Shown piece by piece: positions 4,160-22,581 of a DNA stretch of 64,000 nucleotides. Location: NCBI GenBank assembly GCA_038825875.1, contig JAWBOS010000002.1, positions 12,607-76,606 on the forward strand. The letters are read 5' to 3'. The translations under genes and the position numbers were made by a program. The stretch's first letter is position 1. The number at the start of each line of letters is the position of its first letter. This stretch comes from Candidatus Woesearchaeota archaeon (GTDB lineage Archaea; Nanobdellota; Nanobdellia; Woesearchaeales; JAWBMQ01). A model generated the notes under the pieces. That model was not told where the DNA came from. It saw only the letters and a list, made by a program, of their open reading frames with translations, and ran no database searches.

Positions 4160-4510
4160 CTATTCATTTCTCTTGATGACATCAAATATAACAAATGTCT
4201 TTAACTTGCTTATGGGTCTTGTTTCTCCTACCCTCACAACATCTCCAATGGAAACATCAATGCAATCAGGTTTGTGAACCAACATATTTCTTTTAATCTT
4301 ATATGCTCTTTCATATTTCCTTACTCTAATTACCTCCTCCCATTCAATCCTGGCAGTTCTTCTGCTTTTCATAGACACAACAATACCTTCCATTATTCTA
4401 CCATGAATTTTTATTCTACCATGAAAAGGACAATTCACATCTTGACAAACCTTTTTAGGAGGATTTAACACTGAAATACCTATATTGTTTAATGATTTCT
4501 CTTTATTCAT
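4160..4510 (-). CDS. rps17: 30S ribosomal protein S17. The start was moved to the internal ATG (M43 of the track ORF).
   Basis: S17 motifs are present (CPFHGRIKIHGRIMEGIVVSMKSRRTARIE ... LVHKPDCIDVSIGDVVRVGETRPISK). The 42-residue N-terminal extension in the track ORF has no homology and starts in an AT-rich intergenic stretch. Confidence 0.75.
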   Translation of the reverse strand: MNKEKSLNNIGISVLNPPKKVCQDVNCPFHGRIKIHGRIMEGIVVSMKSRRTARIEWEEVIRVRKYERAYKIKRNMLVHKPDCIDVSIGDVVRVGETRPISKLKTFVIFDVIKRNE

Positions 4511-4618
4511 ATTCCACACCACTAGATATTTAAAAGCAAAATTCTGTCTTTTAATATTTATAAGATCAAATGATGTGAAATTAGCAGTATTTTTAAAGTT
4601 TTTTATTTTCCTATATAA

Positions 4619-5473
4619 TTGATTATGTTTTATCATAACCTCAGTCCTGTTGCCTTTAGAATTGGAGATCTTGAAATAAGATATTATGGCTTAGCTTGGG
4701 TTTTAACCTTTTTTTTAACTCTCTTCTTATTCAAAAAGTATAAAAAAGTAACAAAAATCCAAGACGAGGATGAATTCATTATTGTTCTTCTTCTCTTTAT
4801 TGTTTTATTCTCAAAACTATTGTTTTTCTTAAATGATATTCTTTTTGGTTGGAGAGTAATAGATTTGAATTACATATTATCACATATATTTTCGGGCTTT
4901 AGTGCAATTGGCGGATTTATTGGAACATTTTTCGCATTTTTGTTCTATAAATATGTAAAAAAAGAAAAATTCTCATTACCTTATACCTTTAGTATATTCT
5001 TCATGATTCTAATGTTTGGAGTTGCGGTTGGAAGAATAGCAAATTTTCTAAACAAGGAATTTTATGGAACTCCTAGCAATTTGCCATTTTGCGTGGTCTT
5101 TTTTGAAGGCGATTATTGTAGACATCCCGTGCAACTTTACGAAAGTGCATATTATTTTGTAATATTCATAATTCTGTTAGTCCTTTTCAAAACAAAAGTC
5201 CTAAAGCACTATGAAGAAGGAAAATATCAATATTTACTTATAGATGTTGGATGCGGAATGTATGCAATAGGAAGATTTTTCCTAGAATATTTTAAATCTT
5301 TGCCAAGACTCTATTTTTCACTAACTATAAACCAAATAGAATTAATAATAATGCTAGCAATATATGTAATAGTTAGAAATTATAATAATCTCAAAAAACT
5401 TATCAAAAAGAAAACTAAAACTGAAATCACTTCAGGAGGAGAAAAAAGTGAAAAGAAAAGAAGAAAAAAGTAA
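4619..5473 (+). CDS. lgt: Prolipoprotein diacylglyceryl transferase (Lgt) homologue, a polytopic membrane protein.
   Basis: There is a near match to the Lgt signature (GRIANFLNKEFYG versus G-R-x-x-N-F-x-N-x-E-x-x-G). The HPVQLYE motif corresponds to the Lgt HPTQLYE motif. The N-terminus PVAFRIGDLEIRYYGLAWVL resembles Lgt TM1. Confidence 0.65.
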   Translation: MIMFYHNLSPVAFRIGDLEIRYYGLAWVLTFFLTLFLFKKYKKVTKIQDEDEFIIVLLLFIVLFSKLLFFLNDILFGWRVIDLNYILSHIFSGFSAIGGFIGTFFAFLFYKYVKKEKFSLPYTFSIFFMILMFGVAVGRIANFLNKEFYGTPSNLPFCVVFFEGDYCRHPVQLYESAYYFVIFIILLVLFKTKVLKHYEEGKYQYLLIDVGCGMYAIGRFFLEYFKSLPRLYFSLTINQIELIIMLAIYVIVRNYNNLKKLIKKKTKTEITSGGEKSEKKRRKK

Positions 5474-5687
5474 GCGAAAAAGAATCGCAAGAATTTTAAT
5501 TGAATTAACAATAATGATAGCATTATGGATCATTTTGATATACTACATCATAAAGCTTGATCTTCAAAAGATAACTAAATACGCTTTAATTATTGGCTTA
5601 GTAATTTTAATGGTTAGATATGTAAAAGGTTTTGTTTTTTCACTTGTAAAAAAGATAAGAGGTGATGTGTATGGTAAATCTTCTTGA
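5448..5687 (+). CDS. Small hypothetical membrane protein.
   Basis: The ORF has one or two predicted TM helices and no recognisable motif. It overlaps the lgt 3' end. Confidence 0.2.
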   Translation: MKRKEEKSKRKRIARILIELTIMIALWIILIYYIIKLDLQKITKYALIIGLVILMVRYVKGFVFSLVKKIRGDVYGKSS

Positions 5688-5871
5688 AAAAGAGGCGTGG
5701 GACAGCCCCTTAGGAGTAAGTGTATTCTTCATTGCTTTGGGAATATTTATTTTATTACTTAGTCAAAGTAAAGAATTTAACAAATTTGAAACAACATTGC
5801 TAAGTGTGGGTTTGTTCTTGTTTTTATTAAGTTTATCCGAAAAGCTAAAAGAATCTCGTCCAAGAATTTGA
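5662..5871 (+). CDS. Small hypothetical membrane protein.
   Basis: The ORF has hydrophobic segments and no motif. Confidence 0.2.
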   Translation: MMCMVNLLEKEAWDSPLGVSVFFIALGIFILLLSQSKEFNKFETTLLSVGLFLFLLSLSEKLKESRPRI

Positions 5872-6334: not shown

Positions 6335-7432
6335 TTAGTATCTTAATAAAGCAACAACACCGCCAAATTTTCTCAAAATATGACTTTCTCTTAACTCTGG
6401 CGAAATTGGAATAATTTCAGGATTACTATACTTTGAAGTTTCTAATAAGGAATCTAATCTTTCTTTCTCCATATCCTCTAATAATAGAAGTTTTTCAACT
6501 CTTCCTTCTGTTAATCTTTGCAAAACATTTTCAAAAGAGTACTCAACCTTTTCTGGAGTTTTTGCAACAAAAGTCAAAAATTCGTTTATTGCCTGTTTTT
6601 CTCTAATCAACTCTTCTCCCTTCAGCACATCTTCACTAACACTAACCAATTCCTCTAGTCCTGATTCATCAGTGTAAGTAATATCTTTAATTGCAATTAT
6701 TTTTTGTTTTATTTGATCATTTATTCCTGCAGTATTGTAGAAATCATACTTTGTTGGTCCTGGACCTCCTAAAATAATTCCCTTAATTTCTGATAACTGT
6801 GGAAGAAATACATTCTTCATTGCTTCTGCTCCCTCCTTGAAAAACTGTAGCAGTGCCCCTTCTCTAAGCCTAGCAAATCTTTGTGCTGATTGTCCACCTG
6901 CTCTTGCTTTTCCTGGAATATCTGATGTAAGTTGTCTCAAAACTTGAATTGACTTTCCAATCAACATTCCGATCGTTATCTCTCTTCTATCCAAAACCAC
7001 AAGACCATATTTTGTAGTGTCTTTGCACATCTCTTCAAGTGGTTCTGTTAGAAAATTTTTATCACATCTGTAAATTCTAAAATTAATTGGCAATGGAGGT
7101 TCTATAGCCCACACACGCACATCACTTTTTCCCTCTTGAGAAGCAATGTTTCCAGAAAAGATAGCTAATCCATTCTTTGGAGTTTCGTTGTAATTTTTTA
7201 AGAATTGAAGCATTTTTTCTAAAGCATCAATAACATTCTTTCTTGTAACTGCTGACTTTATATTACTTGCTGTATTTCTTTCCTGAAACAAATGTTCCTT
7301 AATCTTATTAATTGAATAATCTGCTGGAACGTAAACTGAAACAAATTCTGTATGCTGTGCTGAATACTTTTTTAACTCTTCAACAATACTCTTTAATTTC
7401 ATTCGTTCTAATTCGTTCATAGAATTCACCAA
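6335..7432 (-). CDS. prf1: Peptide chain release factor aRF1.
   Basis: The NIKS motif (TASNIKSAV) and the GGQ motif (RAGGQSAQRFARL) are both present. Confidence 0.85.
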   Translation of the reverse strand: MVNSMNELERMKLKSIVEELKKYSAQHTEFVSVYVPADYSINKIKEHLFQERNTASNIKSAVTRKNVIDALEKMLQFLKNYNETPKNGLAIFSGNIASQEGKSDVRVWAIEPPLPINFRIYRCDKNFLTEPLEEMCKDTTKYGLVVLDRREITIGMLIGKSIQVLRQLTSDIPGKARAGGQSAQRFARLREGALLQFFKEGAEAMKNVFLPQLSEIKGIILGGPGPTKYDFYNTAGINDQIKQKIIAIKDITYTDESGLEELVSVSEDVLKGEELIREKQAINEFLTFVAKTPEKVEYSFENVLQRLTEGRVEKLLLLEDMEKERLDSLLETSKYSNPEIIPISPELRESHILRKFGGVVALLRY

Positions 7433-10630: not shown

Positions 10631-10637
10631 TAACATT

Positions 10638-10722
10638 GCGGGGGTCGCCAAGGCTGGTCAAAGGCGCAGGACTTAAGATCCTGTCCCTTAGTGGGTTCGA
10701 GGGTTCAAATCCCTTCCCCCGC
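10638..10722 (+). tRNA. tRNA-Leu (anticodon UAA), class II with a long variable arm.
   Basis: The acceptor stem GCGGGGG/CCCCCGC and the anticodon stem-loop cagga-cuUAAga-uccug are both present. The variable arm is long, and the T-arm is GAGGG-TTCAAAT-CCCTT. Confidence 0.85.
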
Positions 10723-10734
10723 ATCATATTAATT

Positions 10735-11586
10735 ATGAAAATAGACATACTATCTTCAGATTCATTTTCTGTAAGAAGCATGGCTACTTTAGTTAAAACT
10801 AAAGAATTCTCTATACTAATAGATCCAGGAATTGCTTTGGGAATTGGAAGATATGGACTTGATCCTACTCCTTTAGAAATAAAGGCTTTTGAAAATGGAA
10901 GATTAAAAATTATAAAAGCTGCAAAAGAAGTTGAAAATTTTGCTATAACTCATTTTCATTTTGATCATATGCCTTTTTTTAACGATGCTGAATTCTACAA
11001 GATATTCCAAAACAAAAGAGTTTTTATCAAAAATTTTGAGAAGAATATAAATTTCTCTCAAAAGAAAAGAGGTTATGTGTGCAATAAGATACTTTCAAAC
11101 CTTACAAAGGAAATTATCATGGCTGATTCAAAAAGATTTGATAATTTGGAATTTTCAAAACCTGTGTGGCATGGAAATAAGAATTCTAAATTAGGCTATG
11201 TATTGATGACTGCAATTTATGATCAAAAAACCTTTGTGCATGGATCTGACATACAAATGCTAAATGAAGATGCTTTACAAGAACTAGTAAGATTTGATCC
11301 TGACATCGTTTTTATGTCTGGTCCTCCTACTTATCTTAAAAAAATAGATTTTTCCTTCTGTGAGAAATTTATGAACGAATTAGTTAACAAAACAAGAGTA
11401 AAAACTGCTATTATTGACCACCATTTACTAAGAGATATGAATTATCAAGAATTCTTTGAGAAGTTTAAAAATATTGGAGTTAAAATTCTCACTGCTGCAG
11501 AATTTATGGGAAAAGAGAATCTACTTCTAGAAGCAAGGAGAAAGGATTTTTTTCAGAAAAATCAATCTAAAGATTTTAAAAATTAG
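10735..11586 (+). CDS. Metallo-beta-lactamase-fold hydrolase. The start was trimmed to the ATG downstream of the tRNA.
   Basis: The H-x-H-x-D-H motif is present as THFHFDHM. The track ORF start at 10636 overlaps tRNA-Leu and so is unlikely. Confidence 0.5.
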   Translation: MKIDILSSDSFSVRSMATLVKTKEFSILIDPGIALGIGRYGLDPTPLEIKAFENGRLKIIKAAKEVENFAITHFHFDHMPFFNDAEFYKIFQNKRVFIKNFEKNINFSQKKRGYVCNKILSNLTKEIIMADSKRFDNLEFSKPVWHGNKNSKLGYVLMTAIYDQKTFVHGSDIQMLNEDALQELVRFDPDIVFMSGPPTYLKKIDFSFCEKFMNELVNKTRVKTAIIDHHLLRDMNYQEFFEKFKNIGVKILTAAEFMGKENLLLEARRKDFFQKNQSKDFKN

Positions 11587-20318: not shown

Positions 20319-22208
20319 TTATTCTCTATTTCTTTGTTTTTTAAAAATCTCTTTTATTTCTTCAAGCGTTGAAATTTCCTCGACTGGTTTTTCCCTCAAA
20401 CTTAATATTCTTGGAAAACGCAATGCATAACCCGAAGAATATGAATCTGATTCCTGAATTTCTTCATAGATAACAGAAACAACTATCTTGGGAGCAACTT
20501 CTACTATCTTGCCCGATTCCGAAACTATTAGGGGCTTTAAAAGGTTTGTCATCTCTTCATAAGTGATCCCTTCTTCTGTTCTTTCTTTTAAACCTGAAGA
20601 AACTTTTCCAACTTCTAGTAACCTTTCTCCATCTCTACATGCAACATAGTAACTACTTAACCATCTACTTCTCTTACCTTCTCCATATTCTGCTCTTACT
20701 ATGACTAGATCCAAAGCATCTAAGACACCTTTCAATTTTACTCCATATCCAACTCTTTTGCCGGGTTTGTACGGTGTAGATAATGCTTTTATCATTACAC
20801 CTTCATGACCATTTCGAATTGCTTTATCAAACATTTCAATAACATCTTCTTCATTATTTGCAATAATCTGATCTGCTAATAAGCAAATATCACTTTTAAA
20901 AGATGAGAAAATAAGTAATAAAATGTTTCTTCTTTCTCCAAAAGATTTTTTTACTAGGGATTGACCATGTAAAAACAATATATCAAAAACATGATACTTC
21001 ACTGGAACCTTAAAAACATGCTCCTGAATCTTATACTTTCTCATAATTCTCTGACTAATATTCTGAAATGGAACCGGTTTATCATCTATATATCCTACTA
21101 CTTCGCCATCTAAGATACAGTTAATCCTCAATTTTCTCAATTCATTTACGACCTCAGGAAACTTGTCTGTTACCTCTTCCAAATTCCTTGTAAATAACTT
21201 AATTTTTCCTTCAGAATTCAAATTTTCAACATGTGCCTGAACTCTAAAACCATCATACTTAAATTCTACTGCTGCAGGCACTCCAACTACTTCTAACCCT
21301 TCCTTTGCTGAATTCACTTTAACAAATAACATGGATCTAACTGGAATAAACAAAGATATGTTTATTGAATTAAATATTTGTGGGTTTTCTTTTGCTAAAA
21401 AAAGCGCTTGAGCCACTTTTCCAAGATCATTACAGTAATTATATTTCTCCTCAACAAGTTCAGATAAAACCTTTTTATCATCATCGATAAATTCTAAATT
21501 AAAGAACTCCCTCGGTAAATTTTCTAAATCAAATTCAGATATCTTTGAAACTGGAACTGTTATGGGCAAAAGATCTGAATTTTTACATTCAAAACAATAA
21601 TCATAATCCAGAGTTATTGCGTTACATTTTGAGCATTTTTTTACTTTATTTATATCCTTTGGAAGAAATGCAAATGTCAATGCATCAATAAGTAAACCTT
21701 CTGCAAATCCTAAACGAAGTTGACCTAATATTAGTCTTGTTAAATATTTACTCTCTAATGGATCACATAAGAAATAAAGTTCCTTTAGATAGGATAGTTT
21801 TCTTTCAATACTACCTTCTCCCTCTTCTTGTGAAATTTTCTCAAAAAGGGAGTACATTTTCTTAAGTGTAAGCGATTTCTGAATTGGGAATAGGGTTTTT
21901 TGCTTTACCTTTGAAAGTATATTATATGCTACATTTCCAACATCCCCTTCCCTTTTCCAAATTTCCACAATTTTTTCTTCTTTCAAGCCAGATAAGATTG
22001 AAATTAACCTAAGAATAAGATTTACTGAAATTCCCAAATCCCTTTGCTCTGTCTCCTTAAATACTAAACCTTGTAGAAACAACATCAAGTAAGGTAAGTC
22101 ATCAAAATCGCAGGATTTTATTAACTTTGCAATAAAATAAATCTTTTCAAGATTCTTCGAAGTAGCATTAATCTTTTCAAGGTATTTAACTACATCACTA
22201 TAATTCAT
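20319..22208 (-). CDS. lig: ATP-dependent DNA ligase. The start was trimmed to M80 of the track ORF to avoid the tRNA.
   Basis: The adenylation motif I is present as VEFKYDGFRVQAHV (KxDG), with an OB domain downstream. The track N-terminal extension is an antisense translation of the tRNA-Met gene. Confidence 0.85.
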   Translation of the reverse strand: MNYSDVVKYLEKINATSKNLEKIYFIAKLIKSCDFDDLPYLMLFLQGLVFKETEQRDLGISVNLILRLISILSGLKEEKIVEIWKREGDVGNVAYNILSKVKQKTLFPIQKSLTLKKMYSLFEKISQEEGEGSIERKLSYLKELYFLCDPLESKYLTRLILGQLRLGFAEGLLIDALTFAFLPKDINKVKKCSKCNAITLDYDYCFECKNSDLLPITVPVSKISEFDLENLPREFFNLEFIDDDKKVLSELVEEKYNYCNDLGKVAQALFLAKENPQIFNSINISLFIPVRSMLFVKVNSAKEGLEVVGVPAAVEFKYDGFRVQAHVENLNSEGKIKLFTRNLEEVTDKFPEVVNELRKLRINCILDGEVVGYIDDKPVPFQNISQRIMRKYKIQEHVFKVPVKYHVFDILFLHGQSLVKKSFGERRNILLLIFSSFKSDICLLADQIIANNEEDVIEMFDKAIRNGHEGVMIKALSTPYKPGKRVGYGVKLKGVLDALDLVIVRAEYGEGKRSRWLSSYYVACRDGERLLEVGKVSSGLKERTEEGITYEEMTNLLKPLIVSESGKIVEVAPKIVVSVIYEEIQESDSYSSGYALRFPRILSLREKPVEEISTLEEIKEIFKKQRNRE

Positions 22209-22307
22209 ATGATAAAGATAAGAAATAAAAGTATTAAAATGTTTTGTAAAGTAGCAAAATGAAGACAAAATATTTATATAATTTTGAAAAAACCAAGATT
22301 TAGAAGT

Positions 22308-22423
22308 GCCGGAGTAGCTCAGCGGTAGAGCGCCACGCTCATAGGAAATGAGCTCTGAACAGTGATGAAGCTCTGTGGCGCTGAGAAACGTGGAGGTCGA
22401 GGGTTCAAATCCCCCCTCCGGCA
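22308..22423 (+). tRNA. tRNA with anticodon CAU (elongator Met or Ile2) containing a 44-nt intron at the canonical 37/38 position.
   Basis: The acceptor stem is GCCGGAG/CTCCGGC, and the D-arm is GCTC-AGCGGTA-GAGC. The anticodon stem CCACG pairs with CGTGG only when 22344-22387 is removed, leaving the loop CTCATA+A. The T-arm is GAGGG-TTCAAAT-CCCCC. The G1:C72 pair argues against an initiator tRNA. Confidence 0.75.
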
Positions 22424-22581
22424 ATTTAACCCTTCTTCTACCCATAGTTCAAAGATGTATATTTAAAAAGTTAAAAAAATTTAAAAATTGGAACCTAAAG
22501 ATTACGTATGTGGTATGTATTGAAATTAGATTAAGAAAAAATTAAGAAATTAAATCAAAATATTTGAACCAAAATTACACC

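Follow-up and report, generated by a model that had tools for sequence, protein, structure and literature searches.

Examination of a 64,000-nt stretch of a Candidatus Woesearchaeota genome (assembly GCA_038825875.1, contig JAWBOS010000002.1, positions 12,607 to 76,606), hereafter the window, revealed a gene of the prolipoprotein diacylglyceryl transferase family (lgt), whose bacterial enzymes link lipoproteins to a membrane lipid, at 4625..5473 on the plus strand, encoding a protein of 282 amino acids (aa) with seven transmembrane (TM) helices. The open reading frame (ORF) opens upstream of this at a TTG codon (4619..5473, +, 284 aa), but the ATG at 4625 is the better supported start, since it agrees with the N-termini of homologues (MFxHNI...) and with the NCBI gene call; residues of the window protein are numbered from this ATG. 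The first-pass annotation of this ORF had claimed a polytopic Lgt homologue with the Lgt signature and an HPVQLYE motif, and all of these features were found. The protein carries AVGRIANFLNKEFYG and later CRHPVQLYES, and matches the Pfam family PF01790 (LGT) at E=3.8e-33 with 115.3 bits, against a gathering cutoff of 24.9 bits, over profile positions 1-236 of 240. The signature motif GRIANFLNKEFYG (5030..5068, +) is the equivalent of E. coli G142-G154, aligns column for column with G142RLGNFINGELWG154 of that protein and holds R137, N140, N143, E145 and G148 of the window Lgt; the signature is defined as G142-R-x-G/A-N-F-x-N-x-E-x-x-G154 (PMC4728403), and R143, N146, N149, E151 and G154 (E. 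coli numbering) are invariant across the window's clade. An AlphaFold model (predicted local distance difference test score, pLDDT, 87.9; predicted template modelling score, pTM, 0.82) shows the seven TM helices and an N-terminal beta-hairpin, and the predicted fold has the plan of the E. coli structures 5AZB/5AZC, with seven TM helices, the arm-1 hairpin, arm-2 and a periplasmic head. E. coli Lgt, to which the window protein is about 22-24% identical, was the sole solved structure retrieved by sequence search. We regard it as practically certain that the gene truly belongs to the Lgt family and is native to an archaeal genome.

Regarding the active site, alignment of the window Lgt with the E. 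coli positions tested by mutagenesis (Mao et al., 2016; mBio 2026) revealed that Y26, G27, G99, G104, G142, R143, N146, N149, E151 and G154 are kept, as are H196, P197, E202, Y235, R239 and E243 (E. coli numbering). Among these, Y26, R143, N146, G154 and R239 are essential in the lipid-binding and catalytic centre of E. coli Lgt (Mao et al., 2016; mBio 2026), to which Y235 and E243 belong as well. All five members of the window's clade share the counterparts of these residues (Y21, R137, N140, G148, R217, Y213 and E221 in the window protein), and the kept positions make up the whole phosphatidylglycerol (PG)-binding and catalytic hydrogen-bond network. Regarding the catalytic His and Tyr positions on which the homology had been said to depend, Tyr26, Tyr235 and His196 align, while His103 of the HGGL motif is replaced by Ile.

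This replacement belongs to a remodelled arm-2/TM3 N-terminus, GFSAIGGF (4895..4918, +), found in place of E. coli GGMSFHGGL, in which H103 has become I95, F102 has become A94, M100 has become F92 and G98 is deleted. Position 103 is Ile95 in the window Lgt and I/I/I/L in the other clade members (L in P0037), and further changes in the clade are R73 to K, D129 to S, R246 to K (K224) and Y30 to W. Most of the clade changes (R73, G98, M100, F102, H103) cluster in arm-2, the TM3 N-terminus and the adjacent top of TM2; the arm-2/TM3 region is the proposed binding site of the lipobox peptide (Mao et al., 2016), and arm-2, H103 and the head have been tied to protein-substrate specificity (mBio 2026). 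The head domain is reduced to 18 residues, compared with 41 in E. coli, and a Cys pair (WCVVF...CRHP) brackets this mini-head in the window Lgt and in many archaeal sequences, FRHP variants without the second Cys being common. In the 71 other archaeal loci, unlike in the window's clade, H103 is mostly kept (63/71), as are F102 (66/71) and R246 (63/71), while R73, D129 and G98 are present in all 71. The lineage therefore carries an orthodox Lgt, of which the window copy is a fast-evolving derivative with its lipid side intact and its acceptor side rebuilt; the loss of His103 and the remodelling of arm-2 may be read as altered recognition of the acceptor peptide and not as loss of function.

The gene lies in an archaeal setting, as the first-pass annotation had also claimed. 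The window has a uniform GC content of about 30% throughout and encodes the archaeal/eukaryal-type ribosomal proteins S4e, L32e, L19e and L5e, aRF1, CDC48, a PIN protein, an ATP-dependent DNA ligase, HerA and an AglB-like protein, together with a probably intron-bearing tRNA. Divergent from lgt and about 115 bp away is the gene for uS17 (4160..4510, -), the synteny anchor of the locus and the first gene of an archaeal ribosomal-protein operon with the order uS17-uL14-uL24-S4e-uL5-uS14-uS8-uL6-L32e-L19e. An identical uS17/lgt arrangement is present in GCA_038889815.1 (Lgt 47% identical), where the PIN, aRF1 and CDC48 genes follow too, and again in GCA_053997335.1 and in an independent raw-read Logan assembly (Lgt 38% identical); among the three genomes sharing this locus the Lgt proteins are 35-47% identical, and a protein identical to the window Lgt is encoded on JAWAIO010000001.1 of GCA_038888395.1. 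The uS17 synteny is confined to the window's clade and was not seen in the remaining loci (L004-L083), which rules it out as a lineage-wide trait.

Between uS17 and lgt lies a conserved 30-nt element, GTGAAATTAGCAGTATTTTTAAAGTTTTTT (4575..4604, +), whose TATA-like box (4590-4598) precedes the ATG by about 31 nt. L001 and L002/L003 share its core unchanged (counterparts at L001 7959-7977, L002 7569-7587 and L003 3082-3100), although the Lgt proteins are only 35-47% identical, so that conservation of the element exceeds that of the flanking proteins; it occurs only once in the window and gave matches in 0 of 100 shuffles. The element is a putative archaeal promoter from which lgt would be transcribed without a leader, or alternatively may be a promoter with a transcription factor B recognition element (promoter/BRE) or a site bound by a regulator. 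Past the end of lgt and on its strand, a small membrane protein of 66 aa with two TM helices (5671..5871, +; NCBI gene call) is 55% identical to an equivalently placed ORF in L001 (E=5e-23) and may be co-transcribed with lgt. An ORF of 79 aa, likewise with two TM helices, overlaps the 3' end of lgt (5448..5687, +) and is conserved in position, not in sequence.

Regarding the distribution of the family in archaea, phmmer, run exhaustively against 1.84 billion representatives, returned 3,739 relatives at E<=1e-3 and only three at E<=1e-30, which shows the window's clade to be a small and divergent one. Scanning one genome per species in GTDB with the pattern [CF]RHPxQ[LI]Y..., which is biased towards the window's clade and gives no unbiased census, found 535 relatives, the best 80 of which comprised 42 labelled Woesearchaeota, nine labelled Nanoarchaeota/Nanoarchaeia/Nanobdellati, four labelled 'archaeon' (55 together), five labelled bacterial and 20 labelled 'uncultured Methanosarcinales'. 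Of 140 sequences in the unbiased phmmer list, 70 were clearly nearer to archaeon-labelled relatives, 23 were nearer to bacterial ones and 47 were ambiguous, several of the top matches being identical to Woesearchaeota loci, and all organism-named proteins among the best 120 of a profile search belonged to Woesearchaeota, Nanoarchaeota or the 'DPANN group'. Several of the archaeal Lgt loci sit on contigs of 0.3-0.76 Mb. Regarding the DPANN-specific lipoprotein pathway suggested earlier, the observed distribution is that of Woesearchaeota and Nanoarchaeota, among which the family is widespread, and not that of all DPANN.

The 20 loci labelled 'uncultured Methanosarcinales archaeon' (L008, L011, L027, L031, L039, L040, L044, L049, L050, L053, L054, L057-L059, L061, L062, L064, L071, L079 and L083) come from binchicken metagenome-assembled genomes (MAGs) and have a Woesearchaeota-like Lgt. 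The label looks like a placeholder, because most of these loci share the low GC content of the Woesearchaeota loci and because L054, the one inspected, contains a class-III signal-peptide gene; L053, with 66% GC on a 2.5-kb contig, is an outlier.

A neighbor-joining tree of 375 sequences, a crude method, was rooted on E. coli Lgt and bootstrapped 60 times. All archaeon-labelled sequences fall into one clade of about 280. Two bacterial groups, one Nitrospirota-like and one SAR11-like, diverge before it and lie outside the most recent common ancestor of the archaeal sequences in 52/60 and 49/60 bootstraps, respectively. Two other bacterial groups, L066/P0020 (with an adjacent lsp and a bacterial TyrRS context) and P0028 (with a BipA and FolD context), nest within the archaeal-containing clade in most replicates. 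The internal branches are very short, and the window's clade forms a long branch, 1.87 substitutions per site from E. coli. Regarding nesting within bacterial Lgt, a point left to phylogeny by the first-pass annotation, the window's clade is firmly monophyletic (60/60 replicates), while its first labelled relative is split between archaeal-only (32/60), bacterial-only (18/60) and mixed (10/60).

Regarding candidate substrates, the window encodes a surface protein of 655 aa with PKD/Ig/cadherin-like repeats (45420..47387, -), which contains MKKKQILFGWLVFIFIMFIGC and begins with the lipobox-type signal peptide MKKKQILFGWLVFIFIMFIG directly before the cysteine. The lipobox-like signal ending in IGC that had been pointed out in this protein is indeed present and satisfies a PROSITE PS51257-type rule, with F at -3. 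Applying the same rule to 1,102 crude ORFs from the window and the archaeal Lgt loci gave 21 lipobox N-termini, where 3.3-5.3 would be expected judging by how other residues behave at +1 (Poisson P=7e-11 to 2e-7). The 21 come from 19 of 79 loci and are textbook-like (...LSGCGDG, ...ITSCGKK, ...LMTGCAKS), with cupredoxins among them. Abundant lipoproteins have been predicted in DPANN (Hong et al.). In several archaeal loci the genes close to lgt include some for small cupredoxins (MKKILLLIAVLLLMTGC...) and for Cys-rich secreted proteins, with lipoboxes of the textbook kind (L079 4561-4953, with five further loci; L032 3126-3929).

The genes adjoining lgt in other archaeal loci fall into several classes. 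A membrane protein of PF07314, the Lit family, lies beside lgt in five loci (85 bits in Pfam), on the same strand and overlapping lgt in L069 (5349-6020), on the same strand and abutting it in L081 (5347-6000), and near it in L051 (6712-7335), L080 (7526-8146) and L035 (3891-4517); with 38.7 bits against a 400-bit cutoff of the Lit equivalog, these proteins are distant from characterised Lit. If they are functional transacylases, lipoproteins in some members of this archaeal lineage would carry ester-linked acyl chains, a speculative pointer to bacterial-type lipids derived from the host. Genes for DsbA-like proteins are found near lgt in 12 loci, at a median distance of 37 bp (for example L026 5208-5960), and thioredoxin genes in six (for example L021 5620-5934), and these thiol-disulfide oxidoreductase genes suggest a neighbourhood of extracytoplasmic protein maturation. 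L081 also has a CcdA/DsbD-like gene at 4398-5360 and, by sequence, a glutaredoxin-like gene at 6842-7078. An archaeal TIM gene is near lgt in 12 loci. In seven loci of one Woesearchaeota subgroup an uncharacterised protein of about 260 aa with about six TM helices and without a Pfam match abuts or overlaps the 5' end of lgt (L019 5160-6011, L027 5208-5996, L031 1496-2278, L044 5196-6011, L050 5181-6011, L059 5285-5998 and L062 5214-5996); it has the invariant residues D33, Y73, Y81, S82, K85, N113, K185, N251 and R252 and is a candidate functional partner of the archaeal Lgt.

Elsewhere in the window, a CDP-alcohol phosphatidyltransferase (47781..48380, -; PF01066, E=3e-12) was found, whose best NCBIfam matches, pgsA with 41 bits (cutoff 109) and archaetidylinositol-phosphate (AIP) synthase with 36 bits, are far under both cutoffs; identification as PgsA was dropped on that ground. 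It is possibly a polar-head-group synthase for the lipid donor, a link to Lgt drawn here by inference, and it represents a capacity for head-group synthesis in a presumed lipid scavenger. It adjoins an 82-aa PQ-loop/LAB_N-like membrane protein (together 47528-48380, -), both lying immediately upstream of the lipobox surface protein. At 50866-51618 and 52704-56398 (+), an ABC ATPase is encoded near two MacB_PCD+FtsX permeases, which have the architecture class of bacterial LolCDE/MacB, and a secreted CARDB/PLDc_N protein. A tRNA of 116 nt at 22308-22423 (+) has an Rfam score of 58 bits and no ARAGORN call, and is probably an intron-containing archaeal tRNA, because Rfam reports 116 nt where ARAGORN reports none. 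Where the DNA ligase ORF (20319-22445, -) overlaps this tRNA, its N-terminal extension is spurious. Similarly, a tRNA-Leu at 10637-10725 (window 10636-10725, +) overlaps the 5' extension of ORF 10636-11586, whose PRK04286 metallo-hydrolase-like product really begins about 33 codons further in.

Since Lgt is otherwise universal in bacteria, the literature calls the family absent from archaea and MAGs can be chimeric, the window gene might be suspected to stem from bacterial contamination, from mis-binning of its contig or from a foreign island acquired very recently, but the probability of this is negligible. The gene sits inside a 72-kb contig with archaeal-only genes on both sides (uS17 to S4e/L32e/L19e on one, PIN, aRF1 and CDC48 on the other), and the arrangement recurs in independent assemblies and in the Logan assembly made from raw reads, which rules out contamination and chimerism. 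A recent island is ruled out by the uniform GC content, the locus shared at 35-47% identity and the conserved promoter element. Relatives are furthermore present in dozens of independent Woesearchaeota MAGs and single-amplified genomes, on contigs of up to 762 kb. The shared locus and the conserved archaeal TATA-like element therefore mark an inherited archaeal gene and not contamination, and lgt has been passed on vertically within this archaeal clade. As to how it arrived there, the near-universal presence of Lgt in bacteria and its occurrence in one DPANN lineage among archaea favour, by parsimony, an old transfer from bacteria to archaea followed by vertical descent; the horizontal acquisition proposed in the first-pass annotation is plausible to this extent, while the neighbor-joining trees give it no firm deep placement. 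An ancient inheritance, archaeal or predating the last universal common ancestor (LUCA), with Lgt kept by Nanoarchaeota while other archaea lost it or turned it into AliA, would agree with the position of the Nitrospirota-like and SAR11-like groups outside the node uniting all archaeal sequences and with the diversity and the many genomic contexts of the archaeal genes. We consider it improbable nevertheless, given the apparent restriction to one DPANN lineage, the nesting of L066/P0020 and P0028 among archaeal sequences in most replicates and the very short internal branches obtained with a crude method. This alternative concerns origin and not function, and can hold together with an Lgt-like function.

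Regarding function, we think it rather probable, taking the whole statement together, that the window protein is a vertically inherited archaeal member of the Lgt family that works as Lgt does in bacteria. Located in the cytoplasmic membrane with its seven TM helices, it would bind a PG-type lipid in a central cavity whose lining residues are Y21, R137, N140, E145, Y213, R217 and E221, and would move the glyceryl-dialkyl or glyceryl-diacyl moiety as a thioether onto the +1 Cys of exported lipobox proteins, of which the PKD-repeat surface protein may be an example; the lipidated proteins would be anchored to the outer face of the membrane. Catalytic activity is predicted. As donor the enzyme may use archaetidylglycerol if the membrane is archaeal, in which case the product would be an archaeol thioether, or else it may use ester lipids obtained from a host. 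An archaeol thioether is the modification attributed to AliA/AliB in Haloferax. Several observations weigh against this function. With TIGR00544, the NCBIfam equivalog, the protein scores 88.5 bits (E=5e-25), under the cutoff of 118.9 bits. H103 is Ile in the window's clade at a position essential in E. coli, and the changes of F102 to A94 and R246 to K224 are substitutions that inactivate E. coli Lgt; H103A/N/Q/R/Y, F102A/W and R246K all fail complementation there (Mao et al., 2016). The surface protein is the only lipobox ORF in the 64 kb, and the F at -3 of its lipobox is non-canonical (not L/V/I). Regarding Lsp and Lnt, which the first-pass annotation had named as homologues to look for, neither turned up in the window: Pfam and NCBIfam scans of its membrane proteins found no Lsp (PF01252), Lnt or Lit within these 64 kb, and the Lsp motif pair GNxxDR...FNxAD was absent from the window and from 82 archaeal loci (about 820 kb, a fraction of each genome), the only match being in the truly bacterial locus L066. 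AliA was not recognised in this DNA either, although no search with a sequence or model of it was made. Should the membrane consist of ether lipids, the donor would moreover differ from bacterial PG in linkage and stereochemistry, and we know of no Lgt that accepts such a donor.

Part of this evidence would suit a neofunctionalised or catalytically weakened paralogue that has kept the cavity and no longer lipidates lipobox cysteines, and that might instead use a different acceptor, hydrolyse or remodel host-scavenged PG-type lipids or only bind lipid. The replacement of H103 by I, F102 by A, R73 by K, D129 by S and R246 by K and the deletion of G98 are specific to the window's clade, while H103 is kept in 63/71 and R73 and D129 in 71/71 of the other archaeal loci; the H103, F102 and R246 substitutions are inactivating in E. 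coli, the branch is long (1.87 substitutions per site from E. coli), the TIGR00544 score is under its cutoff, and degenerate paralogues such as MSMEG_5408 are known. Those paralogues, however, lose Y26, N146 or E151 (Y26H/N146C in the P0028 group), all three of which the window's clade keeps, and several functional Lgts naturally have Y/W/F at H103 and K at R246 (mBio 2026). The fixed position and the conserved promoter element in at least three genomes, the lack of a second lgt copy in the DNA examined and the presence of a lipobox protein in the window also speak against such a paralogue, which we consider unlikely. A working Lgt remains the preferred interpretation.

Compared with E. coli Lgt, the window protein differs in its archaeal host, in a probably different membrane lipid, in an archaeal-type putative promoter and in that no Lsp or Lnt partner was found within the DNA examined. 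The small-head Lgts of monoderm bacteria and of H. pylori resemble it in having a small periplasmic head, no His103 (Y/W/F) and R246K variants, but there position 103 is aromatic, whereas it is aliphatic (Ile/Leu) in the window's clade, and a conserved Cys pair flanks the mini-head of the window Lgt and of many archaeal sequences. The nearest phmmer relatives are the mainstream Lgts of Woesearchaeota and Nanoarchaeota (L015, L054, L081), which share family, short head and host lineage; unlike the window's clade, they keep the HGG motif (63/71), F102, R73, D129 and R246, and their genes lie beside DsbA, thioredoxin, TIM, Lit-family or 6-TM protein genes, where the window's clade has the uS17 synteny. 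Degenerate paralogues of the M. smegmatis MSMEG_5408 type and of P0028 are likewise divergent, with substitutions at positions essential in E. coli, but they lose the cavity residues Y26 (to H), N146 (to C) and E151 (to L), whereas the window Lgt is changed only on the arm-2/HGGL side. The bacterial P0028 group (L086 101-826) has Y26H, N146C and E151L, substitutions of the kind described for MSMEG_5408, a paralogue presumed to be of low activity. Behind the gene come a radical-SAM gene and five small ORFs, in a layout resembling that for a ribosomally synthesised and post-translationally modified peptide (RiPP), and the protein may represent an Lgt fold put to a new use. AliA/AliB (arCOG02177/arCOG02178) of Haloferax volcanii have the same proposed job, the attachment of a thioether lipid to the lipobox Cys+1 in an archaeon. 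They are the only experimentally supported archaeal lipoprotein lipidation factors, and two arginines are common to AliA and Lgt.

That Lgt is canonically bacterial and that other archaea use other enzymes, as the first-pass annotation had stated, agrees with the literature: papers of 2025-2026 describe Lgt as absent from archaea, and because of this the field frames archaeal lipidation as needing the unrelated AliA/AliB. Archaea with many predicted lipoproteins and without AliA/AliB are known, and additional lipidation pathways have been called for (Hong et al.). Full-text searches for literature linking Lgt with Woesearchaeota or DPANN returned nothing beyond Hong et al., its preprint and an older review. 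The GenBank auto-annotation of the identical protein reads 'MAG: prolipoprotein diacylglyceryl transferase [Candidatus Woesearchaeota archaeon]', and RefSeq largely leaves out MAGs; what is new is the recognition of the archaeal Lgt proteins and of their biological context, the sequence itself being already annotated.

Thus, conserved lgt genes and an excess of lipobox proteins in a major uncultured archaeal lineage correct the stated phyletic boundary of Lgt, and the archaeal Lgt is a concrete candidate for the 'additional lipidation pathways' of Hong et al. Whether the fold uses archaeal ether lipids, what lipids make up DPANN membranes and whether AliA is a rearranged descendant of Lgt become testable questions. 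More tentatively, and short of an even chance in our estimate, Woesearchaeota and Nanoarchaeota may run an Lgt-dependent lipoprotein pathway with either an archaeol-ether or a partner-derived ester donor. If so, the lineage would explain some of the lipoprotein-rich archaea without AliA/AliB (Hong et al.), and, its host being an archaeon and a likely scavenger of lipids, the enzyme would have one of two donors. Ether-linked archaeol of opposite glycerol stereochemistry would add a substrate class new to the Lgt fold, or alternatively the donors would be ester lipids from a partner, which would fit the adjacent Lit-family genes. Such a pathway would also bear on the lipid divide and on the possible descent of AliA from Lgt, and the window's sub-clade, in which Ile has replaced H103 and arm-2 is rebuilt, would amount to a natural experiment on how the acceptor is recognised.

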